Shown here: in pieces, positions 13,588 to 41,376 of the stretch
Position numbering within the stretch: the stretch's first letter is position 1
How the letters are laid out: each line of letters starts with the position of its first letter
Source of the DNA: Escherichia phage phi92
Length of the DNA stretch: 64,000 nt
Sequence record: NC_023693.1
Reading direction: 5' to 3' (one strand)
Position numbers and translations under genes: made by a program
Notes under the pieces: model-generated
Told to the model about the DNA's origin: nothing
The model's input: the letters and a program-made list of their open reading frames with translations, nothing else
Database searches by the model: none

Positions 13588-13595
13588 GGAAAATA

Positions 13596-15755
13596 ATGAA
13601 ACAGGCTATTTTTACTGTAACTCGAAATACGAGAGTAAATGCCAGTTCATTCAGCTATAAGACCGTCGATGGAACGGCGGTCGCTGGTAGAGATTATGTA
13701 GCTAAACAGGGAACAGTAACGTTCCCTTCTGATGCAGATTCTGCTACTGTGGTGGTTGATGTATATGAACGTCCGGCAAACTCTTTAGATCTTTATTTTA
13801 CTCTTGAGATTACTAGCATAAGTCAAAATAACATGATGATCAATGAAGAAATTCGTTGTGTTATTACGACTAATCAATCGAATACAACCCCGCTAACTTG
13901 GCCTGTTGTGAAGTCTAGAATGTTTGATCCTAAGTTTTGGACAATAGATTCTCAATCAACAGAAAGTTGTTCTATTATCTCTAATGGTGATTCTTTCACA
14001 GCAAGAATGGTTAATAGGACAGTGGCTGGTCTTGCTGGGATTATTTGGTCAACTTACGATAAATATGATCACAAAGGATTAGGCTACCAAGAACATTCTG
14101 ACTTAAGTAAAGAGAAACTTTGGTTTAAAATGGAACTTAGTCAAGGTGTTCCTGGATTAAAAGAAGAAAAATTAATACCATCCTTAACAGTGACACTGAA
14201 GGATGAAACAGTTCATTATGTATCTCTAAACTTTTATGCAGAAGAAGTTTCAGAAGATGGTAAGACAGCAACAATCAAACTAGATTTCTCAAATTTAAAA
14301 TCTGGGCCAGAAAATGATATTGTTGTTGACACTACACAGATAGATAATATGTTCTTCTCCTTGATCTCCGCAAGGTATCAAGAAATTGAAGATGTTATAC
14401 CTGTAGACAATATGGATCTTTCCTTTAAGTTTACCATACTAGAGCCTGATACTGGTTACAGTATGATGAATATGGGTAATTTAAATGTTCCGGCGCACAC
14501 CATAAGAATGTGTACATCTTATGATGATATGTATAACCTAACCCCGGAGCGAGTTATTTCTAATACCTATAGATTAGGTTATAGGGATATGATTAACCAT
14601 TATAATGGTATGTCACACTATTATCAATTCAGTTGGGATGCTGGCTCTAATAAATGGGCTTTGAACAGAACAGAATATTTAAACCCAGCAACAGAAGCCT
14701 GGTTTGATAATTTCCACGCTAATGCAAAAGCTATGGGCTACACAGTAATGAACTCCTTAAGTTTTGAACTTATGAGTACAGTGTGTCCTGTAGAATGGGT
14801 ACAACATACTTGGAATGATGATCTGGCTGCTACAGGTTATGAGCCACCAAGTTATGTTTTATCTCCTTCAATTGATGAAGGGATGAATTATTTACAAGGT
14901 GTAATAAATAAGATAGCTTCTATATCCGCTGCTAATGATCTTCCGGTTATTATTCAGGTTGGTGAACCGTGGTGGTGGTATAACACAGCTACCAATCTAC
15001 CGTGTATTTATGATTATACAACCAAAGTTGCATTTAATAATGAAACTGGATTATATGCACAAGATGTTGGTACAGTTAAAAATTATAAAACTGGTACACC
15101 ATATGATGAATATTATGCATTCCTATCTAAAACATTAGGACTGCGTGTTGCTAAATTTGCAACAGATACCAGATTAGCATACCCTGGAGCGAAAGTTACA
15201 TTGTTACCATTTGTACCATCCATCTTAGGTAATGGTATGATGGAGTTTGTTAACTTCCCTAAAGATTATTATATTCCAGAAAACTTTGACTTTTATTGTT
15301 CAGAATGTTATGATTGGTTGTTGGAAGGTAAGATGGAAAGATCTTTTGACGCTATCACAATACCTAATGAGCAACTAGGTTTTAGTTATGATAAGATACA
15401 TTATCTTGCAGGGTTTGTTCCAGATGCAACTCTAGCACCATTATATGGCTTTGATCCTGAATCAAACTATAGGACATATTTGTGGAAAATGATTATAGGT
15501 AATATTGTATTGAATGACCAGAAGTTTGTTGGTTTATATCAATACATATGGGCTTATCCACAAATAATGCATGATTCAATAACTGTTCTTAATTCAAAAT
15601 CCCAAGTTTTTTATATGGGTAATGTGCCTTTGAATTGCTATTTGCAAGATATCACTCTTAAACAGGTAAATGTTACGATTGCTACTATAAGCGGAATTAC
15701 ACTAGCCACTAAATCTGGAGAAGATTTAGTAACAACACAAAAATTTTATATATAG
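13596..15755 (+). CDS. large tail-associated protein
   Basis: 719 aa ORF with RBS; no recognised motif. Confidence 0.4.
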   Translation: MKQAIFTVTRNTRVNASSFSYKTVDGTAVAGRDYVAKQGTVTFPSDADSATVVVDVYERPANSLDLYFTLEITSISQNNMMINEEIRCVITTNQSNTTPLTWPVVKSRMFDPKFWTIDSQSTESCSIISNGDSFTARMVNRTVAGLAGIIWSTYDKYDHKGLGYQEHSDLSKEKLWFKMELSQGVPGLKEEKLIPSLTVTLKDETVHYVSLNFYAEEVSEDGKTATIKLDFSNLKSGPENDIVVDTTQIDNMFFSLISARYQEIEDVIPVDNMDLSFKFTILEPDTGYSMMNMGNLNVPAHTIRMCTSYDDMYNLTPERVISNTYRLGYRDMINHYNGMSHYYQFSWDAGSNKWALNRTEYLNPATEAWFDNFHANAKAMGYTVMNSLSFELMSTVCPVEWVQHTWNDDLAATGYEPPSYVLSPSIDEGMNYLQGVINKIASISAANDLPVIIQVGEPWWWYNTATNLPCIYDYTTKVAFNNETGLYAQDVGTVKNYKTGTPYDEYYAFLSKTLGLRVAKFATDTRLAYPGAKVTLLPFVPSILGNGMMEFVNFPKDYYIPENFDFYCSECYDWLLEGKMERSFDAITIPNEQLGFSYDKIHYLAGFVPDATLAPLYGFDPESNYRTYLWKMIIGNIVLNDQKFVGLYQYIWAYPQIMHDSITVLNSKSQVFYMGNVPLNCYLQDITLKQVNVTIATISGITLATKSGEDLVTTQKFYI

Positions 15756-15763
15756 GAGTAAAA

Positions 15764-18520
15764 ATGTCAACTACAATTACTAATTTACCCGAAACATCAA
15801 AAGTTAATAGTTCTGATTACCTGGTTTTAGACCAGCCTGATAAGACTGTTAAAAGCACAGTTTCCAACTTTCTTGCTGACACTGGGGTGGTTTTAGCCAC
15901 CCAGCTAAAAGATACTTCTGGTGCTACCAAGTATCCAGAACTTCAAATGTCGCGCTGGAGAGATGAAGGTGATCCTAGAGGATGGGGAGCAGTAGGTGAC
16001 GGAGCAACAGACGATACTAATGCTATAACACAGCTTCTTGCTGCTATGCCTGATGGATGGATTATTGATGGGCGTAATCTCACTTTCAAGGTTACAACAC
16101 TACCAGATATAAGCAAGTTTAAAAACGCTGCTTTTGTTTACGAGCGTATTGTTGGACAACCCCTTACTTATGTATCTGAAGGTTTCTTCGATGGAAATCT
16201 GACAAAGATTACGGATACACCATTTTACAATGCTTGGACGCAAGATAAGACGTTTGTTTATGATAATGTTATATATGCACCATTTATGGCTGGCGAACGT
16301 CATGGTGTACAAAACCTCCATGTAGCGTGGGTTAAATCAGGAGATGATGGACAAACTTGGTCTATGCCAGAATGGTTAACTCCAATTCATCCTGATTATA
16401 CAGCAGACAAAGTTAACTATCATTGTATGAGTATGGGTGTATGTGGTAATCGCCTATATGCAGTCATCGAAACCCGTTACTTATCTAACATGCGATTGAA
16501 GAAAGCAGAACTTTGGTCACGTCCAATGCCTTATTATAGAAGGCCAACTGGAGGTATAACAATTAGTTCTGGGTCTACTACGGCGACGATTGTTTTAAAA
16601 AAGCATGGTCTTAAAGTTGGAGATGCTGTTAACTTTTCCAATTCGGGTGCAACTGGTGTATCTGGAAATATGACTGTTGCATCTGTAATTAACAAGGATA
16701 CATTTACGGTTACATTAGCAAGGGCTGCCACATCTAATATAGATAATACAGGAACTACTTGGCATTTTGGAACACGTTTCTGGGATAGCCCTTGGGAAAT
16801 TACAGAATTACCAGATGTTGCCTATTCTACTAATGCAGACTTATGTGTTACAGAAACCCATAGTTTTACAGTTATAGATGATGATAATTACACTTTTGCT
16901 GTGGGTTATCACAATGGTGATATTTCCCCAAGAAGATTAGGTATTTTGTACTTCAATAATGCTTACTCTGACCCAAGTTCTTTTACTCGTAGAACAATTA
17001 GTCAAGAATATGCTGACAATGCAGCAGAACCCTGCATTAAATATTACGATGGAATTTTATATTTAACTACCAGGGGTACTTCAACTTCTGCTGCTGGTTC
17101 TACATTAGCAATGAGTGCTGACCTTGGAGAAAACTGGAATTACTTAAGATTTCCTAACAACGTTCATCATACAAACCTACCATTTGCAAAAGTTGGTGAT
17201 TATCTTTATATCTTTGGTACAGAACGTTCATTTGGAGAGTGGGAAGGGCAAGAACTAGATAATAGATATAAAGGTACGTATCCTCGAACGTTTATGTGCA
17301 AGATTAATGTATCTTCATGGCCTGTATCTTTATCCAATGTTCAATGGTTTAATATCACTGATCAGATATATCAAGGGCATATTGTTAATTCTGCATGTGG
17401 CGTTGGTTCGGTATGTGTTAAAGATGGCTGGTTATATTATATCTTTGGAGGTGAAGATTTCTTATCTCCTTGGTCTATCGGAGATAATAGTAAAAAATTA
17501 TGGTACAAGCATGATGGTCATCCAGCCGATTTATATAGCTATAGACTAAAGATTACCGAACATGATTTTGTATCACGTGACTTCAAATATGGAGCTACGC
17601 CAAACCGTACATTGCCTGTATCTATGGGTACAGATGGGGTAAGGCATGTCTCAGCCCCTGTAACTTTTGATAATGATGTACAGATGTACTCTTTAACAGT
17701 TACTGGTCTTGAGCATGATGGGACACAACAATCTGCCGTTAGAGTAAAATTAGATGGTGATTATGGGGTTATTGCAAAAAATATCCCAATAAAAAATCCT
17801 TCTGAACAGCGACTAATCTTATGTGGAGGAGAAACTCCTTACACTACTGATGGATCGTTATTACAATTGTATGGTTCAAACCATACGTATCCAAACAGAG
17901 CAATTTTATATGCCCCAGGAGGAGCATATACACAAAATAATTTCATGCCGTACTTAGATGGACAAGTTTCATTAGGTGGTGCATCTAATAGATGGTCAGA
18001 AGTGTATGCATCTACAGGAACCATTAATACTTCAGACGGAACATTAAAAACTAAACCTACAGAGATTGAAGATATTTTACTGAAAGCATGGGAAGATATT
18101 CATGTAATCTCTTACCAATGGCTTAGTGCTGTCGCGGAGAAAGGAGATTCTGCGCGTATTCATTTTGGTGTTATCGCTCAAGATGTAAGAGATATTCTGA
18201 TTAATTATGGTTTAATGGATGAAAATAGTACTGATTGTAAGTATGCTTTTCTATGTTATGATGAATACCCTGCTATGTATGATAGTGTTGTTACGGGACA
18301 AAAAGAAATCACTTTACTTGACGATGAAGGAAATAATGTAATTGATGAAGAAGGTAATCCAGTAACAATTGTAGAAGATGTTGTAGAAACTATCGAAGTA
18401 ATTCCAGCAGGATCGCGATGGGGTATCCGCGCTGACCAAATGTTTTTTATTGAGATGGCTTATCAACGTAAAAAGTTAAAAGCTCTTGAAGAAAGACTTG
18501 CAACCCTAGAAAGTAAATAA
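15764..18520 (+). CDS. tailspike/fibre with pectate-lyase-like motif, Asp-box repeats and C-terminal intramolecular chaperone (peptidase S74-like)
   Basis: WGAVGDGATDDTNAITQLL motif; Asp-boxes SGDDGQTWS and SADLGENWN; C-terminal region with NTSDGTLKTK and a coiled-coil tail, as in self-cleaving chaperone domains of endosialidase/T5 pb1-type fibres. Confidence 0.55.
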   Translation: MSTTITNLPETSKVNSSDYLVLDQPDKTVKSTVSNFLADTGVVLATQLKDTSGATKYPELQMSRWRDEGDPRGWGAVGDGATDDTNAITQLLAAMPDGWIIDGRNLTFKVTTLPDISKFKNAAFVYERIVGQPLTYVSEGFFDGNLTKITDTPFYNAWTQDKTFVYDNVIYAPFMAGERHGVQNLHVAWVKSGDDGQTWSMPEWLTPIHPDYTADKVNYHCMSMGVCGNRLYAVIETRYLSNMRLKKAELWSRPMPYYRRPTGGITISSGSTTATIVLKKHGLKVGDAVNFSNSGATGVSGNMTVASVINKDTFTVTLARAATSNIDNTGTTWHFGTRFWDSPWEITELPDVAYSTNADLCVTETHSFTVIDDDNYTFAVGYHNGDISPRRLGILYFNNAYSDPSSFTRRTISQEYADNAAEPCIKYYDGILYLTTRGTSTSAAGSTLAMSADLGENWNYLRFPNNVHHTNLPFAKVGDYLYIFGTERSFGEWEGQELDNRYKGTYPRTFMCKINVSSWPVSLSNVQWFNITDQIYQGHIVNSACGVGSVCVKDGWLYYIFGGEDFLSPWSIGDNSKKLWYKHDGHPADLYSYRLKITEHDFVSRDFKYGATPNRTLPVSMGTDGVRHVSAPVTFDNDVQMYSLTVTGLEHDGTQQSAVRVKLDGDYGVIAKNIPIKNPSEQRLILCGGETPYTTDGSLLQLYGSNHTYPNRAILYAPGGAYTQNNFMPYLDGQVSLGGASNRWSEVYASTGTINTSDGTLKTKPTEIEDILLKAWEDIHVISYQWLSAVAEKGDSARIHFGVIAQDVRDILINYGLMDENSTDCKYAFLCYDEYPAMYDSVVTGQKEITLLDDEGNNVIDEEGNPVTIVEDVVETIEVIPAGSRWGIRADQMFFIEMAYQRKKLKALEERLATLESK

Positions 18521-18548
18521 TACCGCTTCGGCGGTATTTCAATCTTTA
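18521..18548 (+). terminator. intrinsic terminator
   Basis: TACCGC-ttcg-GCGGTA followed by TTTCAATCTTTA. Confidence 0.5.
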
Positions 18549-18568
18549 TATCTCGCTTAGAGGTACTC

Positions 18569-18835
18569 ATGGTTAAAGAGAAAAATGGTTTTAAAAAATT
18601 TATTCGAGGTATGTTTTGTACATATCCTGATAATAAAGTCAGTTCTACTAAAGTTTGGAATGCTATTGGTATGATTGTTATGTCCAGTATGTTTATTTAT
18701 TTGGGAATTGATAAAGAAATTCCTGAATGGATGGGCTGGGCTTTTGTTTTTATGATCACACCATCCAGATTAATGAAGAATTTAATAGATTTACGTTGGG
18801 GCAGATCACCTGCCCCTGATAAGGAGGATAACTAA
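18569..18835 (+). CDS. small membrane protein (two predicted TM helices)
   Basis: 88 aa with hydrophobic stretches VWNAIGMIVMSSMFIYLGI and WMGWAFVFMITPS. Confidence 0.4.
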   Translation: MVKEKNGFKKFIRGMFCTYPDNKVSSTKVWNAIGMIVMSSMFIYLGIDKEIPEWMGWAFVFMITPSRLMKNLIDLRWGRSPAPDKEDN

Positions 18836-20322
18836 TGGCAGATTATGGTTTAACAGATGCTGGTTTTGTCATTCCAACGTTTGATGATATTTTAAATAAT
18901 TATATGACAGCATTGAAAAACACTTTCGGTGCAGATACAGCTACATCCGAAGATACTGTCTTTGGTCAACTGTTTCGTATTATTGCATATACAGATTACA
19001 CCCTTTGGGAAGGTATGCAAGGTGTTTACAATACCCAAACCTTAGATGGTGCAGAAGGTATTTACCTTGATGAAATTTTCTCTAAAAGGGGTTTTTATCG
19101 TAAAGCTGCTTCTGCTGGTAGTGGTTATGCTTATGTTAAATCTAACAATAAGGCAGCTTGGACTTATGAACTAAGCACAGATGTTTATTTTAATGCCGAT
19201 AACGATTTGACATATTATGTCAGTGCACCAACAATGTTGAATGCTAAGATTGGAGCATATACCATTTCTAAAGCAAACGCAACAGCTTCTGGTGAAACTT
19301 CTATTACTTTCTACATTCAAAGTGCTATTGATGGTGGTCTTAACAGTAAAACACTAAGTCCTAGCAATACAAACTTTATTTTAGATCTCACGAATTTCAT
19401 TAAAGCTAACGTATCAACAACAGATCGTGCTTTAGTATGGAATGATGCTAGTAATGTTTACATGGGTTATAATCCAGAAGATAATGTTAATCCAATAGGT
19501 CTAGTAACACCAGTGAAATTTTATGCATCTATTGCAATTGGTACAAAATGGAGTGAAATTCCAGTTACGTGTTCAGACGTTGGTTATAATCCAGTAGGTA
19601 CAGAAAGTATTACAGGTATTTCTTCAACGTTTACAGGCTTTTTAGATACAGGTAACTTCTATCCATTCTCTCCAGGTACAGATGTTGAAACAGATGCAGA
19701 ATTCCGCTCTCGTTTCAATGATAATATGGATGAAGCTAATGCTGCTACTCGTGCTGCTATTGTTAAAGCTCTGCTACTGACAGATGGTGTGACAAAGGTT
19801 AAGATTTATGATAACCCTACATTACATGATCAAGAACATGCTCCAGCTATGACATTCCAGACTATTGTGTATGGTGGTACAGCAGAAGAAGTTGCACAGG
19901 TTATTTATAATACTAAGCCTATTAACACCCTAACCTATGGTACAACAGCAATTACTATTGTAACAGAAGATGGCGGTCAAGAAGTAATTCGTTTTTCTCC
20001 TGGTGACAATGCTGAATATTCACTTAAACTAGTATATCAAACTGGCAATGGTAGTGTGTTAAGTACAACAGAAAGAGAAAATATTGTTTCTGCTCTTTCA
20101 AATCTACAGGCTTATTTTGAGTTAGGGTCAACAGTAACTAACGATCAGATAAAAGGTGTAATTTATTCTGCACTTGCGTTCGGACGCTTGACTTCTCTCC
20201 GTGTTTATGTTAAACTTAATACTGAGGATGACAGTAAATATAATGAGGGAGATATCACTCCAGCGTACAATGTTGTACCATCCTTTGACCTTGATAATAT
20301 TTCCTACGAGTACGGAGTCTAA
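18835..20322 (+). CDS. baseplate J-like wedge protein
   Basis: 495 aa; N-terminal region (FGQLFRIIAYTDYTLWEGMQGVYNTQTLDGAEGIYLDEIFSKRGFYRKAASAGSGYAYV) matches the Baseplate_J pattern as I recall it. Confidence 0.5.
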   Translation: MADYGLTDAGFVIPTFDDILNNYMTALKNTFGADTATSEDTVFGQLFRIIAYTDYTLWEGMQGVYNTQTLDGAEGIYLDEIFSKRGFYRKAASAGSGYAYVKSNNKAAWTYELSTDVYFNADNDLTYYVSAPTMLNAKIGAYTISKANATASGETSITFYIQSAIDGGLNSKTLSPSNTNFILDLTNFIKANVSTTDRALVWNDASNVYMGYNPEDNVNPIGLVTPVKFYASIAIGTKWSEIPVTCSDVGYNPVGTESITGISSTFTGFLDTGNFYPFSPGTDVETDAEFRSRFNDNMDEANAATRAAIVKALLLTDGVTKVKIYDNPTLHDQEHAPAMTFQTIVYGGTAEEVAQVIYNTKPINTLTYGTTAITIVTEDGGQEVIRFSPGDNAEYSLKLVYQTGNGSVLSTTERENIVSALSNLQAYFELGSTVTNDQIKGVIYSALAFGRLTSLRVYVKLNTEDDSKYNEGDITPAYNVVPSFDLDNISYEYGV

Positions 20323-31161: not shown

Positions 31162-31560
31162 TTACATTACTTTAACACAAAACTCTCGTAAAAGAGTAGC
31201 GTCAGTTTCTTCCAACAGGTATTTACCAAGACCAATACCAAATCCTATTTCACCACTTTCGAAATGGAGGATTTGTATCTTTTCTCCACCAAGGTTAATT
31301 ACTTTTGCTTTTCCAGGATTATCCAAAACATCTCGTATTGTATCCTGTAGTAGCATTAGTTCACGTTTTGTGATAGTGGTTTCAGATATCTCTTTGTTTT
31401 CTACTCTCACTGTTAAACGGTTGTATCCACCAAAGAGACATAGTATTTGAATAAAAAAGGTATTATCTTGAGGTTCAACATCTTTTTTAGTTAGCTCAAG
31501 ACGATTAGTTTCTCTACTGTAGAACGTCTCGACTAAGATTTTAGAACGATTATCTGTCAT
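31162..31560 (-). CDS. hypothetical protein
   Basis: 132 aa ORF. Confidence 0.4.
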   Translation of the reverse strand: MTDNRSKILVETFYSRETNRLELTKKDVEPQDNTFFIQILCLFGGYNRLTVRVENKEISETTITKRELMLLQDTIRDVLDNPGKAKVINLGGEKIQILHFESGEIGFGIGLGKYLLEETDATLLREFCVKVM

Positions 31561-31603
31561 TCAAGTCCTCATAATAACACATAATTACAATGTTTGTCAA
31601 CAC

Positions 31604-32197
31604 TTAAATTTTAAATTCTTCATTGTTAAATGAATCCAGTGTACGTACTTCTGGTTCTTTGGGAATGAAAACGTCTTTTACAAAGCGGAACATAGGGAAA
31701 CGTTCTGCCATTTTACGGACGTGTGCTTCTTTACCTGTGTATCGGTGATTAATAGTGCAAATATTAGTTTTCAATGCAAATTCAAAATCTGGATGATATA
31801 CATAATTTTGACCATCCCAGTAACACAAGCAAATAGCTACATCAAAGTTCCATACGATTTCACTGCGTACACCTTCTTCCATGATCATAAAGTTAAACTT
31901 AAGATCTTTATAGTATGCTTCAAATACCCATTTCAAATGTGGTAGTTCGGCATAAGTGTGTTCTGTTTGCTTAGTAAGTTGTTTAACATTACGTGCACCA
32001 ACACCCAACATCAAAAATTTCTCTACTAATACGAGTGTATTGTGGTTAGGCATACGCAAGTAAATATCAATATCTTGCGCAGGTTTCTCTAATCGCCAAT
32101 CACGTACAGCGCCGCCAGCTACAATTGCAAACGGATCTACCAGTTGGCACATACGTAATACTTCTAAAGCTCGTACTTTTTGATCTTCAATATTCAT
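31604..32197 (-). CDS. minimal nucleotidyltransferase, CCA-adding enzyme/poly(A) polymerase head-domain-like
   Basis: FAIVAGGAVRDWRLEKPAQDIDIYL matches the GGAVRD...DxD signature of class II tRNA nucleotidyltransferases; only 197 aa. Confidence 0.5.
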   Translation of the reverse strand: MNIEDQKVRALEVLRMCQLVDPFAIVAGGAVRDWRLEKPAQDIDIYLRMPNHNTLVLVEKFLMLGVGARNVKQLTKQTEHTYAELPHLKWVFEAYYKDLKFNFMIMEEGVRSEIVWNFDVAICLCYWDGQNYVYHPDFEFALKTNICTINHRYTGKEAHVRKMAERFPMFRFVKDVFIPKEPEVRTLDSFNNEEFKI

Positions 32198-32232
32198 ATT
32201 TTCTCCTATCTCTTATGGTCTTTGCGTTATTC

Positions 32233-32250
32233 TAGATGTTCAAACATCTA
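32233..32250. repeat. 18 bp palindrome TAGATGTT-ca-AACATCTA (candidate operator), next to a hairpin at 32274-32303
   Basis: Perfect 8 bp inverted-repeat arms in the intergenic region between the DNA polymerase and nucleotidyltransferase genes. Confidence 0.4.
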
Positions 32251-32334
32251 ATTATGAAATGGTTTAAAAGTGCGGAACAACCTTGGCAATAACAGATTGT
32301 TCCACATAAAAACTCCTTTAAAATCAAAGAGTTG

Positions 32335-35300
32335 TCAGTGACAAGTTGACCATGAACTACCAACATCGTAACCAGCAGTGAGAGGTACATTAAGATTGTA
32401 ATACTCACCAGCTTTATTAACAGCGATAGATGCTAATTCTCCAGCACGACTGTAGGCTGTAAACCAACCACCTTTCGGAGATTCATGTACGTTAGCCCAA
32501 ATCTTGCCAGTACGTTTCTCTTCCTCTTCTTTCCAGGCATTAACTTTATCCAAACATTCTTTATCAATTTTCTTTTGTTCCTCTGGATCATCAACTTGAG
32601 TCCAACCTAAAGATTCTTTAGAGAACCATTTAAAATGCACCAGATCACGAGTTACTTCAAGCTGTGCTTCATCGTGATATGCAATCATTTGTTGAACGAA
32701 TGACTTATTTTTCCAGTCATCAACAAAAAAGTCAACAGCTAATCCTTCTTCTTCGATAAGATCGTCGTAGATAACCATTGCTCTTTTTGCACAAATAACA
32801 CCACCACTCTGGAACAGAGAGTTAAGTATTGCGTGTGCAGATCGTGTAGGTACTTTCCTACCATCAATACCAAGAATGTATTTCTTACCTGTTTTAACCC
32901 AAAAATCATGCAGACGTTCTTTAAGAAGCGCAAGAGGTTTTGCAGCTTCCCAGAAAGCATCGTATACAAGCTGTCCTGTATACATATCACTACCTATAGT
33001 TTTTGCTACTTTTGCAGCTTGAGCACCATAAGTAATACCATACTTAACAGATTTAGCAGGGCTTCGTTCAAACTTACGACCAATAGTGTCAGAAATACGT
33101 CGAGCCATCATTGTATGAACATCATTAGGTTTTTCCAATAATAGAGCATTACAATATTCGTGTGGTTCCTGCTCGTACCGCCAACAATTCCCTGTAATCG
33201 TGATGCAGTCTTTCTGACGCATAACCCATGTACCGAGTTCTGTTTGTGGACACCAAACATCTTCTACACCCCATTCTTCAATAGTCAGACTTTGAACAGG
33301 GATGTGAGAGCGGTTAGCCAACGTTGCCACTTTTACTTTCTGGTCTTTCGTATTGAAGGCTACAGAAATATTACCCCCATGAACCAGGTATGAGGCAGTT
33401 AAGGCTGCTTCAAAAAGTTCTCCTGGGTTCTGCGCCCAGCGCCAAACAGGTTTTTGTTTATGTTTGTGCCAGTAACCATCCGCAATCAAAAAACCTTCCA
33501 AGAAAGCCACACGCTCGGCATGAGACATATTAACTACACGTTCTACCCACGGAACATCCCATTTACCTTGTTGAACAGAAGTTAAACTATTTACTTGATC
33601 TTGTTCCATGTTAAATGGAGCATTACAAATAATGTTATCTCCTGTGCAAAGCTCGGCAGTTGTTCTGACTTTAGGCACATAAGTATTCCCTGTACTACGA
33701 GTATTAACATACCAACGGTGATCTGCTGTTGCACGATAAGTATGGGATTTTCCTTTAATCTCAAACGTCTTACTATTTTTATAGAAGACCTTACCTTTTA
33801 CTTTAGTCCATTCTTTAAGTCCTGTTTCTGGGTTATATCCTAAGATTTCATCCCCTTCTTGTAGATCGTGATAACCAACCCAACCTTTACGGGTTAGTGC
33901 TTGTGCATCCATAGGTACACAGTAGTGTGATTCTATTTTTGCCTCAAGAGAATCAAAGTCATAACCAATTTGGAAGTATTTTGGAACTTCTACACCAAAT
34001 AAGTTACGCATTTCATATCCGTACAGAGATGTTACACGTGGGATATTTGCTACTAACCTATGTTTCATACGAGACGTAGCTGCATCACACGTTGCAGCAG
34101 GAGTTGGTATACGACCATCAGCCCTTACTGCTGCCAGATAACCTTTATCGTAATCCTCTTCATCTTCTTCCCAATCAGCACCACCTCCTAGAATAGAGTT
34201 CCTACGGTGTTTATACGTAAGATACTGCACAATCTGCGTAGCATAAGGAAACTTTTCACCTAGTGCTTCCAAGTTAGGACAAATATCTTTCTCTTGCCCT
34301 TTTGTAAAGGAAGGGTTAGTAAGCACTTTAACACCACGACCTTTAGCTTTAGCAATACGATCTCTTAGTTTCCATTCCAAAGTTTCTGGTGTGCACTCCA
34401 GATGATCACATCTGTCCTGGCAGAAGTTAGATGCCAATGTTTGATCAACATAGTCACGAATAGCTTTCTCCATTTGTGCTTCATCTTTCTTAATCTTAGT
34501 GCCAGATTTAAGAGTGATATCTTTATCTTTATATTCAGATGGACTCCAACCTAAACCAACTAACCAGTTTTTAATATGTGTCGTGTCGTCTAAAGTAGCA
34601 GGTACTGTAGGATCACAAATAGGTTCTTCTGCTGGAATAGGTAGTTTAAACTCTTTACCTAAAGCAAATAACCACCAACCATCTTCTTTTTGTACAAGTT
34701 CACCAGAATGTTTCTCTGCAAACTTTATCATGTTACTTGAAGGTTCACCATTCTTTTTAAACTGTAGTTTAGGTGGAATGAATGATTTCAAATAACCTTT
34801 AGTAGCAGGTTTAGGAGGTAGCACAGGTTCTGCCTCTAAACGACATGCTTCCATTCGAGCATCCAGATCACGAATATTATCTTCTGCTTGTTTCATATTG
34901 AAAGCAAAGCCACGGTGCTCTTGACGTGTAATAATATCCGCTACACGTTGTTCTAAGTTAAATGGTTCAGACCACTTATTATAATCACCCCACTCTTCCA
35001 TCAAATAACGGAACACTGCGGTGTTAGCTTTGTTATCGTAAATACAGTAATACAGCATATCTGCTGCAAATGTTTTAAATCTTTCAGTTTCAGGGATATT
35101 TTTTCTAAAATCAATTTTAACATCCCCTCCAGCTTTCTTAGATAACTCTGCCAGACTATGACCACCGAAGCGATCAGGGTTTAGTGTCTTACTTAAGATC
35201 ATAGTATCACAAATTTCAATGTTACTATTACCCCAAGTATTGTACTTAATACTGTAGTTGAGTTTAAAAAATAATTTAATTGCCAGTAAGTCAAAGTTAA

Positions 35301-35649
35301 TGATGTTATGTCCAACTACTTTGGTAATTTTATAGTTTGAATTACCTTTAAATTTACCTGTTCCATTTACAAAATCAGGAAAATCTTTAAGAGGGAAATG
35401 GGTATATTCTAAATGCTCATATTCCTCCAGTCGGTATTCATACTTTCCGTCAGTCTCAACATACGGACGACCATCGAAAAGATATTTATCACCATCATGG
35501 AAAGCAATAATCTCTCCAGTATCATGACTTTCGCACACAATACAGTGCATTGCAAAACTATCTTTTAAACGATATGGACTTGCCAAGTAATCTACACTTT
35601 CGTCATTAAGCAAGTTGTTACTTTCAATGTCGAAAGTAAAAGCTCCCAT
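32335..35649 (-). CDS. DNA polymerase, family A (T7-like) with 3'-5' exonuclease domain; intein-containing
   Basis: Exo I motif FDIES near the N-terminus; motif A-like GYDFDSLEAKIESHY; motif B-like RKFERSPAKSVKYGITYGAQAAK; NDVHT; a ~245 aa insertion between motif A and the following conserved segment. Confidence 0.75.
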   Translation of the reverse strand: MGAFTFDIESNNLLNDESVDYLASPYRLKDSFAMHCIVCESHDTGEIIAFHDGDKYLFDGRPYVETDGKYEYRLEEYEHLEYTHFPLKDFPDFVNGTGKFKGNSNYKITKVVGHNIINFDLLAIKLFFKLNYSIKYNTWGNSNIEICDTMILSKTLNPDRFGGHSLAELSKKAGGDVKIDFRKNIPETERFKTFAADMLYYCIYDNKANTAVFRYLMEEWGDYNKWSEPFNLEQRVADIITRQEHRGFAFNMKQAEDNIRDLDARMEACRLEAEPVLPPKPATKGYLKSFIPPKLQFKKNGEPSSNMIKFAEKHSGELVQKEDGWWLFALGKEFKLPIPAEEPICDPTVPATLDDTTHIKNWLVGLGWSPSEYKDKDITLKSGTKIKKDEAQMEKAIRDYVDQTLASNFCQDRCDHLECTPETLEWKLRDRIAKAKGRGVKVLTNPSFTKGQEKDICPNLEALGEKFPYATQIVQYLTYKHRRNSILGGGADWEEDEEDYDKGYLAAVRADGRIPTPAATCDAATSRMKHRLVANIPRVTSLYGYEMRNLFGVEVPKYFQIGYDFDSLEAKIESHYCVPMDAQALTRKGWVGYHDLQEGDEILGYNPETGLKEWTKVKGKVFYKNSKTFEIKGKSHTYRATADHRWYVNTRSTGNTYVPKVRTTAELCTGDNIICNAPFNMEQDQVNSLTSVQQGKWDVPWVERVVNMSHAERVAFLEGFLIADGYWHKHKQKPVWRWAQNPGELFEAALTASYLVHGGNISVAFNTKDQKVKVATLANRSHIPVQSLTIEEWGVEDVWCPQTELGTWVMRQKDCITITGNCWRYEQEPHEYCNALLLEKPNDVHTMMARRISDTIGRKFERSPAKSVKYGITYGAQAAKVAKTIGSDMYTGQLVYDAFWEAAKPLALLKERLHDFWVKTGKKYILGIDGRKVPTRSAHAILNSLFQSGGVICAKRAMVIYDDLIEEEGLAVDFFVDDWKNKSFVQQMIAYHDEAQLEVTRDLVHFKWFSKESLGWTQVDDPEEQKKIDKECLDKVNAWKEEEEKRTGKIWANVHESPKGGWFTAYSRAGELASIAVNKAGEYYNLNVPLTAGYDVGSSWSTCH
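33187..33921 (-). mobile_element. intein (aa 577-821 of the polymerase ORF) with one LAGLIDADG-like motif
   Basis: Starts with Cys (CVPMD...), TxxH block (TADHRW), LAGLIDADG-like FLEGFLIADGY, ends ...ITGN with +1 Cys (CWRY); removing it restores a contiguous motif A segment. Confidence 0.6.
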
Positions 35650-36145: not shown

Positions 36146-37918
36146 TTAATAAGAACCAGCAGAAATATTTTCTGGGTTACTTGTGTATTGATCGTAATCG
36201 TGAAGTGTAGCTGTTTTAATCTCATAGAAGAAACTACCTGCTGCACCAGTCTCTGAGAACTCACGGTTCTTTAGAATGTAGCAATATGTGCGGTTACGTT
36301 CCATAGGATCTTCAGCTTGTTTATCACGCTCCAGCGCAATTGTGATACCAGCACCTTTAGCAAGGAAGCTACTACCCATTGCATCATCTTCTACAATATG
36401 TTCATTACTATTGTTAGAAGACTTTTTAACGTGTGAAATTACAACAATGGTTATTGCATACTCTTTCATAATGCGTTTGAGCCACGTCGCAAGTTCCTCT
36501 TGTTGTGACACGTCCATACCAGAAAGCAAATCAGAATAAGGGTCGATAACAAGAATGGTTACTCCGAAATAAATAATCATTTCCAGAACCTTCTCTTTAA
36601 TCACATCTACGTTAGCTCCACGATCATCACAAACATAGAAACGTGGTGTTCCATCTTCTCGTTCGTAAAAATCACGAATCTTTTCCTCATTATCTTTTAA
36701 AATCTTTTCCTTCTCTTCTTTCGTTTTACGGTGAAGAGGGATATGCAAGAATGAAGACAGTAAGTTACGAGAATACTTCTTATACGTTGCCTCCAAAGAT
36801 AAAATACCAAGAGTATGTTCTGGATGTGCAAGAATAATGTGCTTCGTAATCTCGTTAACCAACAGTGTCTTACCGATACTTGTTTTTGCAAGTATAACAG
36901 TAATTTCTTCTTCTACCAAGCCTCCACCTAACATATTTGAAGCAACACGCATGAATGGAGGAAGGGTGATCATTTTAGCTTCCAGGCATTCCAAGGCTGC
37001 TTCATACAGTACGTTAGAAGCGTAAACACCAGCAGGTGTGTACAGTTTAGCTTTGAAAAAGCGATCAATAAAATGATCAATTTTTCCTTCTACTAGCGCC
37101 TGGTTAGGATCTTTAACATCCGTTAGTTCCATCACGTAAACTTTATTACGTGGTAAGATTTTAACACATTTCTCAACTGCTGCACGTCCAGCTTCATCAT
37201 TATCCATACATAGAACAATCTTTTTAAATTGATCTAAGAATTTATAACGATGTTGAAGCTGCTTATGCAGAGATGTTTCGCCACAAGTACCAGATACTAC
37301 AGCAGGAACAGGATATTTACCACCCTTGTTATAATCTTTTAGCATCTGTGTTGCAGCCAGCATATCGTGTTCACCACCAACGATTAGAATAGTACCGCTG
37401 TGGTTACGATATTTAAACTCCCCAAAAAGATCACAATCCTTTCCTGTTTCACCGATAGGATGTGAGAAATCTTTTGGATCGATACGTTGTTTATACCCAG
37501 CAATATTGTAATCTTTAGTTGTAGGGTACAGTGTTGAAATTACTTCGCCAGTAGCTTCATCGTACATATAACGTACACCGAAAGGCTTAGAGATATCTTC
37601 ACGAATACCTCGATAACCTTTTGGATTAGTTCCAGTGCTGGCTTTTAGTTTATCATGTACTTCTGGATTAAACTCACTACCCAAGATATCCTCCTCTTCA
37701 ATTTCTTCGCCGTGTGCATTTAACCATTTTTGATCAGGGATAGTAAAGCCACAAGAAAAACAATGTGCGCCTCGATGGTCTTCATCGGCATCTAAGCCAT
37801 ATACCATCAAATTGTTTTGTGATCGATCACGCCCTCCTTTCATACAACGAGGACACCCAGTATGTCCTTCTTGACTTAGATCAATGTTATACCCATATTT
37901 ATTTACAACATAAGACAC
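36146..37918 (-). CDS. bifunctional DNA primase/helicase (T7 gp4-like)
   Basis: N-terminal zinc ribbon (CPRC...CFSCG), TOPRIM-like ILIVGGEHD, DnaB-like helicase Walker A (AKTSIGKT) and downstream helicase motifs. Confidence 0.7.
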   Translation of the reverse strand: MSYVVNKYGYNIDLSQEGHTGCPRCMKGGRDRSQNNLMVYGLDADEDHRGAHCFSCGFTIPDQKWLNAHGEEIEEEDILGSEFNPEVHDKLKASTGTNPKGYRGIREDISKPFGVRYMYDEATGEVISTLYPTTKDYNIAGYKQRIDPKDFSHPIGETGKDCDLFGEFKYRNHSGTILIVGGEHDMLAATQMLKDYNKGGKYPVPAVVSGTCGETSLHKQLQHRYKFLDQFKKIVLCMDNDEAGRAAVEKCVKILPRNKVYVMELTDVKDPNQALVEGKIDHFIDRFFKAKLYTPAGVYASNVLYEAALECLEAKMITLPPFMRVASNMLGGGLVEEEITVILAKTSIGKTLLVNEITKHIILAHPEHTLGILSLEATYKKYSRNLLSSFLHIPLHRKTKEEKEKILKDNEEKIRDFYEREDGTPRFYVCDDRGANVDVIKEKVLEMIIYFGVTILVIDPYSDLLSGMDVSQQEELATWLKRIMKEYAITIVVISHVKKSSNNSNEHIVEDDAMGSSFLAKGAGITIALERDKQAEDPMERNRTYCYILKNREFSETGAAGSFFYEIKTATLHDYDQYTSNPENISAGSY

Positions 37919-37930
37919 ATGATTCTCCTA

Positions 37931-38200
37931 CTAAAATGATTCGTTTGTCTCCATAATATATTGCATTTCCAAATCTTCCATATGTTTCTTAAATTGGTAA
38001 ACAATTTCCGATGGGGAAATATCTATATCAAAAAGTTCTTTTGTACCAGAATAAAATCTAATACCATCAACAATAAGACCACCATAATAATCCCAATCAC
38101 TTTCTCGTGAGAAAGGATTAGGTTCTTCATAATAGTAATCTACTTCAACAATAATAGGTTCTTTATTATCTTGTTTATACTCAAAATCAAAAGTGTTCAT
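37931..38200 (-). CDS. hypothetical protein
   Basis: 89 aa acidic ORF. Confidence 0.4.
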   Translation of the reverse strand: MNTFDFEYKQDNKEPIIVEVDYYYEEPNPFSRESDWDYYGGLIVDGIRFYSGTKELFDIDISPSEIVYQFKKHMEDLEMQYIMETNESF

Positions 38201-39144
38201 TATAAATCCTCGATAAGCAGTCTGCGGGTTTCATTTAAATCATCAATATTGTAGTTATCTCTTACATACTTAGCAAGAGCCAATCCTTTCTCAATACAAA
38301 CATCAGGAGATTCGATTAAGTATTCTACAATATCTTTCCACTCTTTAACTGAATCAGCAAAGAAGATTAGATCTTTAAATTCTTCAGTATAGTAGTTCTC
38401 TCGTGGTGAACAAACGAGTGGCAAACCTTTAGCACCAGCTTCAAGAATTTTTAAATTACTTTTGGCATTATTAAAATGATTATTTACTAATGGAGCTATG
38501 GAGATTTGATGACCATCGTATGCTTCCATATAACACTCATAAGGACGAATACCTTCATAAACACAACCTGGTTGAATATCTTCTTTAATTTGCAACCATT
38601 GAGCACTACTTAACTCTTCGTGATCTCTACGAAATCCACATAAAGTTAAATCTTTACCAAAATCAGGAAGAATTGCTAAATCATGTTTATGTGTTTCACT
38701 TCCCGCCCAAACTAGTGGACTTTTAGAATAACGGTCTTTAGTAAGAACAAACTGTCCTTCATCAAAAGGTAATCCGTTAGGCACAATATGTACATTATCA
38801 TTGTATTGGCTTAATTCAACCTTTAATGCCGGAGTTGTTGTGGTTACAAGATCGCTTCTTTCAAGGAACCATTTTAGGTCATCTCGGATTTGATTTTCAA
38901 ATAGTCCTTCAAGCATATGCCCTTCAGGAATAATTAAAGAATCATCCAGATCCATTACCAATTTAAACCCAATTTGTTTAAGAGCCAGGAAACCTGGCTT
39001 TCCACGTGTTGGTACTCCATTGAACACAAAAATATTATGCTTAGGATTAATGGTCAGTTTGCGTTTATATGGCAAAATGATTCTATGAAAATCACATACA
39101 CTATACTTTTCATTTCCGCGTGTGTCAAGAATAATATTAGGCAT
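38200..39144 (-). CDS. putative glycosyltransferase, GT-B fold-like (paralog 1)
   Basis: C-terminal KSNLKILEAGAKGLPLVCSP resembles the nucleotide-sugar-binding helix of GT-B enzymes; clear paralogy with the adjacent gene (CDFHRI.., WAGSETH.., LKILEAGAKGLP). Confidence 0.4.
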   Translation of the reverse strand: MPNIILDTRGNEKYSVCDFHRIILPYKRKLTINPKHNIFVFNGVPTRGKPGFLALKQIGFKLVMDLDDSLIIPEGHMLEGLFENQIRDDLKWFLERSDLVTTTTPALKVELSQYNDNVHIVPNGLPFDEGQFVLTKDRYSKSPLVWAGSETHKHDLAILPDFGKDLTLCGFRRDHEELSSAQWLQIKEDIQPGCVYEGIRPYECYMEAYDGHQISIAPLVNNHFNNAKSNLKILEAGAKGLPLVCSPRENYYTEEFKDLIFFADSVKEWKDIVEYLIESPDVCIEKGLALAKYVRDNYNIDDLNETRRLLIEDL

Positions 39145-39155
39145 ATAACTCCTTG

Positions 39156-40169
39156 TTAAAGACTTTCAATAACTTGACGACGCAGTTCATTGGCATCTGC
39201 AAGATTATAATTAAGACGAACGTGTTCTGCAAGCATCATACCACGATCTTCTGTGTATCTAGGATTCCTAATTAGCTTGACAACTTCATAGTGCCAAGAT
39301 GCTTTAGAGTCTGCATAGATAACAGCCTTTGCATCTACCGGATTGAAGTACGGCAGCACAGGAGAACAGATAATAGGAAGACCCTTTGCACCTGCTTCCA
39401 AAATCTTCAAATTGCTTTTACAGTTGTTGAAGTCATTATCTACCAGAGGAGCAATTGCAATACTATGACCGTCATACACAGACATATACTCACCTAAATT
39501 TTTAATAGCTGGTTTATACTGTGCATTTGGAATTTTACGTTTTATTTTAACCCACTCCGCAGTAGTTAGATACTGACTATTATTTCCAACAGGTGCAGAA
39601 GGATACACTTCATACCCTGCAATTGTCAATAGTGTATCATCAAATGTATTAGCTACAAGAGATAAATCAGGCTCATGGCTTGCTCCTCCAGCCCAGATAA
39701 TAGGTGTGTCAGAACTACGGTCTTTTGTCAAAGTAAATTGACCTTCGTCGTAAGGTAGTGCGTTTCTAATTACGACAACATTACGATTTAAATGACGAAT
39801 TTTGTAAGCTAGGTATTCTGTTGTTACAGTAACAACATCTGCTAACTTAACCATCTCTACAATAGTCTTTGAATGATTAGTAAATACGCCAGCCATATAA
39901 TGTTCAGGATTAAGTGAATAAAAGTCATCTAAATCAACAATAATCTTAACACCTTGTGCCTTCAGGCGTTTAACCTCGTCTGCTCCACGAGAATACACTC
40001 TATTAAAAACTAAAACGTCTTTCTTAGGTTTAAATGTATTTCCAGCAAATGGCATTACAATACGATGGTAATCACAACCACTGCCTAACTTATTATCACA
40101 CTTAAGTACAGGAGTATTAGGATTTACCATATTTTTGAGCCTCCTCATAAGAGATAAAAGTTTTACCAT
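39156..40169 (-). CDS. putative glycosyltransferase, GT-B fold-like (paralog 2; start uncertain)
   Basis: Shares CDYHRI, IWAGGASHEPDL and LKILEAGAKGLPIICSP blocks with 38200-39144; an internal ATG at 40130 aligns better with the paralog N-terminus. Confidence 0.4.
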   Translation of the reverse strand: MVKLLSLMRRLKNMVNPNTPVLKCDNKLGSGCDYHRIVMPFAGNTFKPKKDVLVFNRVYSRGADEVKRLKAQGVKIIVDLDDFYSLNPEHYMAGVFTNHSKTIVEMVKLADVVTVTTEYLAYKIRHLNRNVVVIRNALPYDEGQFTLTKDRSSDTPIIWAGGASHEPDLSLVANTFDDTLLTIAGYEVYPSAPVGNNSQYLTTAEWVKIKRKIPNAQYKPAIKNLGEYMSVYDGHSIAIAPLVDNDFNNCKSNLKILEAGAKGLPIICSPVLPYFNPVDAKAVIYADSKASWHYEVVKLIRNPRYTEDRGMMLAEHVRLNYNLADANELRRQVIESL

Positions 40170-40803
40170 TGCGAAGATCCTCCAGAGATTGTTTATATTG
40201 TTCCCAGTTTACACCAATCCCCTGTTCTTTCTCTTCTTTTGACAGATTCGCAAAAGGTAAAGGATTGTCTCCAAACACATCATCAGGATGGATAAACGCC
40301 ATAATTCGAATAGGACATGGCACGCCTTGAATACCTCGGTTCAAACCTGCCAGTGGAACGCGATGAATCCACTCTGCATCTTCATATCCATAACCGTGGG
40401 TGTATGAGCGGAAATAGCCAGCTTTCTCAATAACTGCACGGGAATACATACCAAACTGGCACATACCTAGTTCCCAAATAACCACTTCCCCTTCAATACC
40501 TTTTACTTTATCTTTAAAGTATTCAGGCATACCAAAGAAATCCCAACCATTTTCCTTCGCCTGTTTTACAAAATATGTTTCCCAACCTGGAACAACAGGA
40601 TAACAATCATCATCAAAAATAAACCAGTAGTCATACCCTTCATCATAAAACTTTTTCATCAGTTCATTACGGGCATATGCAACACCTTTTCGTTCACGAT
40701 CATACTGTACAACAAAAGTAGCATTAGGATCAGTTACAAGATAATCTTTAAGAGGACGCTTACCTACAGTAATAACACCAACACCAATTTTTGTATTTTC
40801 CAA
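40117..40803 (-). CDS. glycosyltransferase, GT-A fold-like (DxD)
   Basis: YWFIFDDDCYP (DxD motif) and HGYGYEDAEW; TTG start with AAGGAG RBS. Confidence 0.5.
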   Translation of the reverse strand: MENTKIGVGVITVGKRPLKDYLVTDPNATFVVQYDRERKGVAYARNELMKKFYDEGYDYWFIFDDDCYPVVPGWETYFVKQAKENGWDFFGMPEYFKDKVKGIEGEVVIWELGMCQFGMYSRAVIEKAGYFRSYTHGYGYEDAEWIHRVPLAGLNRGIQGVPCPIRIMAFIHPDDVFGDNPLPFANLSKEEKEQGIGVNWEQYKQSLEDLRNGKTFISYEEAQKYGKS

Positions 40804-40812
40804 AATAACTCC

Positions 40813-41376
40813 TTAAATAATTTTATTCATGTCTTGACAATGTAAAAGGTGTGAAACAGCTTTTCTAGGATCATCATTACCTAAACGGTATGTGTGAAAT
40901 AAATATAACCCACGTAGTAAACCTAGCCTTTTATTGTTAGCGTGCAATGCTTTAGAGAAAATTATATCAAACTGTATTGATCTTTCCTCAAAAGGAATTT
41001 CATTCCACAGACTCTTACGAAAGAGAAGAAAGAATCCTGCTAAGATAGCATCTGTAGGTACTTCCTCTATTGAGTTTCCCCATTCTAGATGTGCTCTTTT
41101 TGCAATCTCAATGTGGTGTAATATATTCGGATCTTCACTTCTTTCATTATTAAATAATTGATATGTTGATCCCAATCTGTTACAAGATGCACCAAGAACA
41201 TCAAAATCAGGATTTGAACGGACAATTGATTCCAGCCAAGCAGGTTGTTCTGGAAGAAGAAACATTGTATCAATGTCTCTTAGGCAAATCCAACTATCTT
41301 CTGGTAAGACACTTATTGTGTCATTGATACCTTTTCCAATATCTCCAGAAAGATAGGGAGTTATGTGAAATATCAT
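40813..41376 (-). CDS. hypothetical protein, possible glycosyltransferase-like
   Basis: 187 aa; contains CLRDIDTMF (DxD-like); weak evidence. Confidence 0.3.
   Translation of the reverse strand: MIFHITPYLSGDIGKGINDTISVLPEDSWICLRDIDTMFLLPEQPAWLESIVRSNPDFDVLGASCNRLGSTYQLFNNERSEDPNILHHIEIAKRAHLEWGNSIEEVPTDAILAGFFLLFRKSLWNEIPFEERSIQFDIIFSKALHANNKRLGLLRGLYLFHTYRLGNDDPRKAVSHLLHCQDMNKII

Follow-up and report, generated by a model that had tools for sequence, protein, structure and literature searches.

A stand-alone predicted nucleotidyltransferase in the replication module of Escherichia phage phi92 is closer in sequence to the Gad2 family than to CCA-adding enzymes

Directly behind the family A DNA polymerase gene of Escherichia phage phi92 (NC_023693.1) lies a gene for a protein of 197 amino acids (aa) that carries a motif aligning with that of class II CCA-adding enzymes. 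The locus raises the question of whether a stand-alone protein of this size acts on the 3' ends of tRNA, as a sequence-only reading of this DNA had suggested, or belongs to another kind of nucleotidyltransferase. We analyzed the gene within a stretch of 64,000 nucleotides (nt; the window), which comes from a myovirus of E. coli that is phi92-like and belongs to the genus Justusliebigvirus (Stephanstirmvirinae). Taken loosely and as a whole, our answer is that the gene encodes an enzyme of the Gad2 (Gabija anti-defence protein 2) family and not a CCA-adding enzyme, a statement to which we assign a probability of roughly 0.55. A Gad2-like role is the most likely one and tRNA CCA repair is less likely.

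The gene is real, and the 197-aa open reading frame (ORF) was confirmed on the minus strand with an ATG start (Table 1). The segment AGGAVRDWRLEKPAQDIDIY corresponds to residues 27-46 of the 197-aa protein and includes the class II motif A (GGxVRD...DxD), with GGAVRD at residues 28-33 and D42-I-D44. In an alignment of 220 family members sharing ~25% identity, G28, G29, W34, D42 and D44 were invariant, and A27, A30, R32 and D33 were each at least 93% conserved (R32 in 99%). With this degree of conservation, the motif is under selection and not a product of chance, and the near-canonical signature described in the sequence-only reading is confirmed. E93 sits 49 residues past D44, and the corresponding spacing to the third carboxylate in class II enzymes is 41-52 residues (PMC3925840). 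The position was occupied by E or D in 71% of family members. With a fitting spacing and a mostly acidic position, E93 is a plausible and probable candidate for the third carboxylate.

The fold was modelled with AlphaFold2 from a 70-sequence alignment, which gave a predicted local distance difference test score of 90.4 and a predicted template modelling score of 0.84, with low confidence only at the last ~20 residues (175-197). The modelled protein has a long N-terminal helix, a five-stranded catalytic core bearing GGAVRD, D42xD44 and E93, and two short helices at its C-terminus. In the model these two helices look like the start of the class II 'neck', so that the protein would stop where the neck begins. 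The best structural matches in the PDB were class II CCA enzymes and poly(A) polymerase I (PAP I), and the protein has the head-domain fold of the class II CCA/poly(A) enzymes. Minimal nucleotidyltransferases of the antibiotic/kanamycin type were not the closest structural neighbours of the model. The nearest folds are therefore not the unrelated Pol-beta-fold enzymes that the sequence-only reading had held up as the alternative, and the structural part of its CCA-like interpretation stands, whereas the part concerning CCA repair or tRNA tailing is not supported, as set out below. The PHROG 1614 'nucleotidyltransferase' profile matched residues 7-193 (E 2e-34), and the BFVD collection contained many stand-alone phage relatives of 165-215 aa with the same fold (template modelling scores up to 0.79-0.84). 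Judged from motif and fold, the protein is quite probably an active, minimal, non-templated nucleotidyltransferase of the DNA-polymerase-beta superfamily.

At the sequence level, resemblance to class II enzymes was confined to helix 1 and motif A, a span of 22-47 residues. A profile of the family reached the CCA enzymes of the PDB over 47 residues at E 0.03, and profile alignments to E. coli Cca and PAP I ended after motif A. With the family profile, searches of PDB sequences returned nothing longer than matches of motif-A length, and with the Gad2 profile they returned none. The Pfam PolyA_pol score was 19.1 bits, below the gathering cut-off of 23, and that model was matched at E <= 0.01 by only 5 of 70 family members. 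Apart from sub-threshold PolyA_pol hits, scans of the protein, 70 relatives and 10 N-terminally extended relatives against a Pfam set lacking PF26128 yielded only noise. Nothing significant was obtained with NCBIfam either; its CCA equivalog models reached 15 and 13.9 bits, the cut-offs being 290 and 281. The RRD-type motif of class II enzymes reads the ribose 2'-OH. Neither a conserved RRD-type motif nor the neck Asp/Arg pair (ED..R) was present in the 220-member alignment, positional correspondence being judged by eye; the residues conserved downstream of the core were Q/N102, F118, C123, F138, Y153, K162 and F167. Neither the body nor the tail domain is present, as the sequence-only reading had also recognized, the protein having 197 aa where E. 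coli Cca has 412 aa and PAP I has 465 aa. A class II enzyme depends on three carboxylates in its head, on an Asp/Arg pair in its neck as a template for CTP and ATP, and on its body and tail, which grip the tRNA by the acceptor and T arms (PMC3925840). Since it has no neck Asp/Arg template and no body/tail anchor for tRNA, the phi92 protein could not alone measure out C-C-A on a tRNA.

[quoted passage not shown] The precomputed Pfam annotation of the exact phi92 protein was PF26128:Gad2, without the mark for a weak hit and hence at E <= 1e-5, and the same family was assigned to the protein P0001 and to most close relatives. BLASTP against the verified Brevibacillus Gad2 aligned residues 24-138 at E 1e-5. 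When the family profile was compared by hhalign, it matched the verified Brevibacillus Gad2 with 92% probability (E 5.6e-7, 113 columns) and nine Gad2 homologues taken from Yirmiya et al. Table S10 with 97.2% probability (E 4.8e-11, 123 columns), while the comparison profiles of E. coli PAP I and Cca reached 38.7% over 43 columns and 6% over 22 columns. Family-specific residues beyond the generic motif were shared with Gad2, namely Q/N102, F118...C123 and F138. By these sequence profiles, the family stands far nearer to Gad2 than to the CCA enzymes. The published list of Gad2 homologues itself includes proteins of 214-278 aa. Together with the profile homology, this makes the 197-aa protein a member of the Gad2 family at the level of the domain. 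A literature search for the accession PF26128 found nothing.

We examined the setting of the gene in phi92 and its relatives. The replication module of the window lies wholly on the minus strand and runs in the order Toprim/DnaB-type primase-helicase, a small ORF, family A polymerase, the nucleotidyltransferase, a protein of 132 aa, one of 315 aa whose C-terminal tail resembles those of single-strand-binding proteins, and an N6/N4 DNA methyltransferase, with the nucleotidyltransferase directly behind the polymerase. Over the 2 kb around the gene, identity to muut, Paula, VivaForever, UAB_1 and other phages was 98-99%, and the nucleotidyltransferase was found at >=95% identity in 54 records, equal to the number of records covering >=80% of the 2-kb query. 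A homologue with 37% identity is syntenic in Phapecoctavirus, and the gene stands behind polA in both genera. Linkage was surveyed more widely with ORF calls and all-against-all BLAST on 80 IMG/VR loci plus the window (81 loci). In 57 loci a DnaB-type helicase was encoded no more than 6 kb from the nucleotidyltransferase, and in 48 a family A polymerase (PolA) was; after dereplication at 50% identity one or both were found within that distance in 20 of 32 lineages. The linked genes were nearly always on the same strand, and their orders varied (helicase-nucleotidyltransferase-polymerase, helicase-polymerase-nucleotidyltransferase, nucleotidyltransferase-helicase-polymerase and polymerase-nucleotidyltransferase-helicase). 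Family members were also located within the replication modules of a 47.7-kb Vibrio podophage and an 83-kb metagenomic phage. The gene is thereby linked to the replication module, and its overall habit is that of a conserved component of this module, not that of a mobile accessory gene.

Several observations weigh against our reading. Verified Gad2 proteins are ~400 aa long, and a C-terminal part of ~200 aa is missing from the 197-aa protein; only the N-terminal ~145 residues of Gad2 align with it, and identity to Gad2 is only ~20-24%. Verified Gad2 has GG[AT]ITS and thus lacks the R-D of GGAVRD, a feature in which the phi92 protein is more CCA-like than the verified Gad2 proteins. The settings differ as well, in that temperate Bacillus phages carry verified Gad2 in an accessory locus for anti-defence whereas the phi92 gene is a conserved replication-module gene of a virulent E. 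coli myovirus; it is syntenic among relatives and is not placed at a variable anti-defence locus. Across the family, conservation of the third carboxylate is not strict, 12 of the 32 lineages had no linkage to PolA or helicase, and the linkage that was found may in part be inherited synteny. Finally, a 2026 review lists the mechanism of Gad2 as unknown (PMC12904381), so that to say the protein works like Gad2 specifies no chemistry.

With these points in mind, we propose that motif A of the phi92 protein would bind a nucleoside triphosphate with Mg2+ and that the enzyme would carry out untemplated nucleotidyl transfer to the 3'-OH of an acceptor. It would be expressed together with the genes of the replisome, its own gene following right after the presumed polymerase terminator, and may act in Gad2-like counter-defence or host takeover on nucleic-acid ends or on nucleotides during phage DNA replication. 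Such a counter-defence or replication-linked role is put forward tentatively, at somewhat less than even odds. In line with this, relatives of the protein affect something essential, SPbetaL7 Gad2 being toxic and Emajogi gp22 cytotoxic.

What the acceptor might be can be asked of the context. Residence in the replication module would be explained by a terminal transferase of the replisome that adds nucleotides or deoxynucleotides to the 3' ends or primers of phage DNA, serving replication, concatemer processing or the hiding of ends from end-sensing nucleases and defences, Gabija and RecBCD for example. PolA and DnaB-type helicase genes are close by in many lineages in varying order, the family has no conserved RRD-type motif, Gabija is described as a sensor of DNA ends (table in PMC12904381), and one mechanism would cover both the activity of Gad2 and its relatives' place among replication genes. 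This proposal is wholly inferential, however; the nearest characterized folds all act on RNA 3' ends with ribonucleoside triphosphates and the protein has no evident DNA-binding domain, and we consider it rather unlikely. In its most general and admittedly speculative form, in which Gad2-type mini-enzymes would tail the 3' ends or primers of replicating phage DNA and so hide it from defences that sense DNA ends, for example Gabija and RecBCD-linked systems, we regard it as more doubtful still. If true, DNA-end tailing would account at once for the action of Gad2 against Gabija and for the occurrence of ~190-aa relatives in PolA/DnaB modules across many unrelated phage lineages.

Toxicity could point in another direction, toward host shut-off by RNA tailing. 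The protein might resemble a miniature poly(A) polymerase or a MenT-type toxin acting on host mRNA or on tRNA acceptor ends, with RNA decay or a translation block as the outcome and nucleotides freed for phage DNA synthesis. The 182-aa Gp22 of Klebsiella phage fHe-Kpn01, described as 'tRNA nucleotidyltransferase-like', is toxic in E. coli (PMC7291057). Emajogi gp22, a nucleotidyltransferase encoded beside primase/helicase, is cytotoxic and has homologues in some other phages that are annotated as Gad2-family. With SPbetaL7 Gad2 also toxic, small CCA-like phage proteins and Gad2 have this property in common, and the loss of base-templating residues would suit an unspecific tailing enzyme. Yet toxicity upon over-expression is not specific evidence, and fHe-Kpn01 Gp22 comes from a more CCA-like family that is not demonstrably the same one. 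The phi92 protein also has no RNA-binding domain and nothing connects its gene with early host-takeover genes. RNA tailing is in our estimate an improbable function, on a level with DNA-end tailing.

Repair of tRNA 3' ends, in which the enzyme would restore C, C or A on CCA ends trimmed by host nucleases, possibly with a partner that binds the tRNA, fared slightly worse. The interpretation is not new, as GenBank records of related phages already carry it: in Phapecoctavirus (e.g. phAPEC8, JX561091) annotators chose the name 'putative tRNA nucleotidyl transferase / poly(A) polymerase'. It draws on CCA-adding enzymes being the nearest solved folds, on the near-canonical motif A, and on a lineage that invests in tRNA, the near-identical phage muut having 15 tRNA genes, an annotated RNA ligase and an adjacent phosphoesterase. 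Against it stand the absent body and tail, the lack of a conserved neck Asp/Arg template or RRD motif, and the Pfam head-domain score under threshold. The check for tRNA genes proposed in the sequence-only reading also went against repair. No tRNA gene was found in the 64-kb window, and a distance of at least ~50 kb separates the nucleotidyltransferase from the tRNA and ligase genes. The 15 tRNA genes of muut all encode their CCA, so CCA synthesis from scratch is not needed, and E. coli has its own Cca. A relative resides inside the replication module of the Vibrio podophage mentioned above, which has no tRNA genes, and the genes that recur beside family members are those for PolA and helicase, not tRNA genes. 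Phage tRNAs in need of an enzyme to supply an absent CCA were considered and ruled out, given that every one of the muut tRNA genes ends in CCA. Nothing specifically supports repair of host tRNA, and a CCA-repair role is unsupported; we consider it unlikely. Least probable by far is a catalytically dead scaffold that keeps the fold and acts by binding only, for instance as a decoy or polymerase accessory subunit: a third carboxylate that is not universal and the loss of several class II motifs would allow it, but invariant G28, G29, D42 and D44 with nearly invariant R32 and D33 in 220 sequences at ~25% identity are the pattern of a maintained active site.

Table 1 Features of the nucleotidyltransferase locus (positions in the 64,000-nt window)
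Feature	Position	Strand	Remarks
Coding sequence, 197-aa stand-alone nucleotidyltransferase	31604..32197	-	ATG start; PF26128 'Gad2' family; PHROG 1614
Ribosome-binding site AGGAG	32203..32207	-	5 nt ahead of ATG; read from sequence
Motif A, residues 28-46, GGAVRDWRLEKPAQDIDIY	32060..32116	-	Gly-Gly turn, R32-D33, metal-binding D42xD44; aligns with CCA-adding enzymes
E93, candidate third catalytic carboxylate	31919..31921	-	strand 88-96 of model; putative assignment
Intergenic region, 137 nt, polA stop to nucleotidyltransferase start	32198..32334	-	nearly identical in phage muut
Inverted repeat 8+2+8, TAGATGTTcaAACATCTA	32233..32250	.	inside promoter-like site; identical in muut
Weak sigma-70-like promoter match TTCATA-18-TAGAAT, 9/12	32229..32258	-	consensus match only
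Hairpin, 13-nt arms (32271..32283 and 32294..32306), 10-nt loop	32271..32306	-	arms 85% complementary
Family A DNA polymerase	32335..35649	-	Pfam DNA_pol_A; immediately upstream
Toprim + DnaB-type primase/helicase	36146..37918	-	Pfam DnaB_C, Toprim_2
132-aa protein, function unassigned, directly downstream	31162..31560	-	PHROG 16560, E 7e-76; same neighbour in Phapecoctavirus

The intergenic region upstream of the gene was examined separately. In a crude gene call of the window, the 137-nt gap ranked fifth longest of 77 gaps, the median being 11 nt. The gap, the palindrome and the hairpin of the sequence-only reading were all recovered, but the gene is not flanked by them: both elements are upstream only, in the stretch from the stop of polA to the start of the ORF. 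What was called an '18 bp palindrome' consists of TAGATGTT-ca-AACATCTA, with 8-nt arms around a 2-nt centre that is non-self-complementary, and hence is not a perfect 18-mer. No other copy of the TAGATGTTcaAACATCTA repeat with two or fewer mismatches was found in the window. On the sense strand, the hairpin follows soon after the polymerase stop codon and is itself followed by UUUUAAA; its stem is conserved in muut, with a single change, in the loop. The sense-strand RNA of the whole gap folded at -32.1 kcal/mol (z = -3.46), beating all 200 shuffles. An Rfam search of the gap matched no known structured RNA, and a terminator scan of the region called nothing, the long hairpin being missed because its loop exceeds 8 nt. 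The hairpin is probably a terminator or attenuator of the polymerase transcript, the terminator reading being based on its fold. The region held fewer sigma-70-like matches than its shuffles, and the inverted repeat within the promoter match is a possible operator. Read along the sense strand, the layout would be a polymerase terminator or attenuator, a promoter with a possible operator, and a ribosome-binding site.

In the 43-nt gap downstream, between the nucleotidyltransferase stop and the 132-aa gene, the only feature was a sigma-70-like consensus match at 31571..31600 (-), near-perfect with TTGACA-18-TATTAT, an extended TG and 11/12 positions. Its -10 element ends 10 nt before the ATG of the 132-aa gene, and the GAGGA ribosome-binding site thus falls near the expected transcription start. 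The match may be due to chance or may be the source of an almost leaderless transcript.

Other features of the replication module and its surroundings were noted. The phi92 family A polymerase has 1104 aa compared to 859 aa in muut. Mapping against the muut polymerase revealed a clean 244-aa insertion at residues 578-821 (window 33187..33918, -), with flanks 100% and 98.6% identical. The insertion begins with Cys, ends ...TITGN followed by Cys, and holds the LAGLIDADG-like FLEGFLIADGY; it was unrecognized in a Pfam scan. From these sequence features it looks like an intein with a homing-endonuclease remnant. Directly behind the primase/helicase, four consecutive genes (window 38200..41376, -; locus L001 14465..17641) are annotated as glycosyltransferases in muut, which has a complete dTDP-rhamnose pathway elsewhere in its genome, and these four genes could modify the host surface or phage DNA. 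The 15-tRNA cluster of muut and its adjoining genes (locus L007 8242..11279, 12026..14724 and 17619..19104) correspond to DNA outside the window. The cluster adjoins genes for nicotinamide phosphoribosyltransferase (NAMPT) and ribose-phosphate pyrophosphokinase (Prs), resembling an NAD+ reconstitution pathway, and the muut pair of phosphoesterase and annotated putative RNA ligase resembles a T4-style RNA repair set that is far from the nucleotidyltransferase. Four records designated 'Campylobacter phage' with the host Campylobacter jejuni (MG065639, MG065645, MG065656 and MG065689) were 99% identical here to E. coli Justusliebigvirus, which suggests mislabelled hosts or contaminating coliphages.

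A search with the single sequence yielded only 2 clusters, and the wider family came from profile and exhaustive searches. The exhaustive HMMER search returned 997 cluster representatives at E <= 1e-3, mostly of 175-230 aa, and length and sequence were kept from 99% down to ~25% identity. The family, with ~1000 representatives mostly of ~190 aa, is found mostly on phage-like contigs. In a minority the N-terminus is extended by 100-210 aa (P0139, P0030, P0111, P0130 and P0173 at loci L013, L018, L026, L027 and L030). The extensions are of two or more unrelated kinds, one being a tandem repeat of ~70 aa. A Pfam scan of 10 such relatives left the extensions unmatched, and at several loci the extended ORFs begin ~60 nt past the helicase gene. 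The extensions might point to a substrate or partner. The homologue in Vibrio phage ICP1, ORF223 (L031/L092 4477..4890), has 137 aa, lies near a DNA ligase gene and spans residues 3-126 of the window protein; it is therefore without the C-terminal helices bearing Y153 and K162. In several ICP1 records a pair of ORFs is annotated beneath the ORF223 match, suggesting a split or decaying gene. The same NAMPT/Prs pair as in muut lies a few kb from this truncated homologue.

The gene is thus an ordinary phage gene, already catalogued as PHROG 1614 and Pfam Gad2, and the label 'tRNA nucleotidyltransferase / CCA-adding' on genes of this kind is not justified by sequence. The nucleotidyltransferase domain of Gad2 is not confined to accessory anti-defence loci, and short stand-alone versions are conserved components of the replication module in many phage lineages, including the tractable E. 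coli phages BASEL Bas60-62. A literature search for Gabija tests of Justusliebigvirus/BASEL phages found nothing usable. These phages offer a system for asking what the family transfers, onto what, and whether anti-Gabija activity is general.

Compared to known systems, the phi92 protein has helix 1 and motif A in common with the class II CCA and poly(A) polymerases, with perhaps a third carboxylate at similar spacing. It is half their length, and their context is tRNA processing whereas that of the phi92 gene is DNA replication. Similar in setting are small proteins of Autographiviridae, among them Gp22 of Klebsiella phage fHe-Kpn01: in those infecting Pectobacterium (e.g. PP47 gp28) a similar protein is encoded between the helicase and polymerase genes (PMC7693777). 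These are likewise stand-alone and head-domain-sized, between primase/helicase and DNA polymerase genes, and counterparts from related phages gave structural matches in BFVD, for example that of Pectobacterium phage PP2 (E 4e-8). They differ in being much nearer to true CCA enzymes in sequence, with a reported HHpred E of 3e-19 for Gp22 of fHe-Kpn01 (PMC7291057). No biochemical assay was found in the literature on fHe-Kpn01 Gp22 and the Pectobacterium and Emajogi-type small proteins. NP_344798.1 (PDB 2la3) of Streptococcus pneumoniae, a bacterial rather than a phage protein, likewise stands alone as a 'CCA-adding enzyme head domain', with 10% identity to the phi92 protein and no detectable sequence relationship. 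Minimal nucleotidyltransferase toxins of the MenT/AbiEii type, small enzymes with the Pol-beta fold, append nucleotides to the acceptor ends of tRNA, and as a possible analogy they hint at how a domain without body and tail could act. With Gad2, the phi92 protein shares AGGA, DxD-[IV]-[YF] and the Q/N102, F118...C123 and F138 positions, and both are mostly phage-borne.

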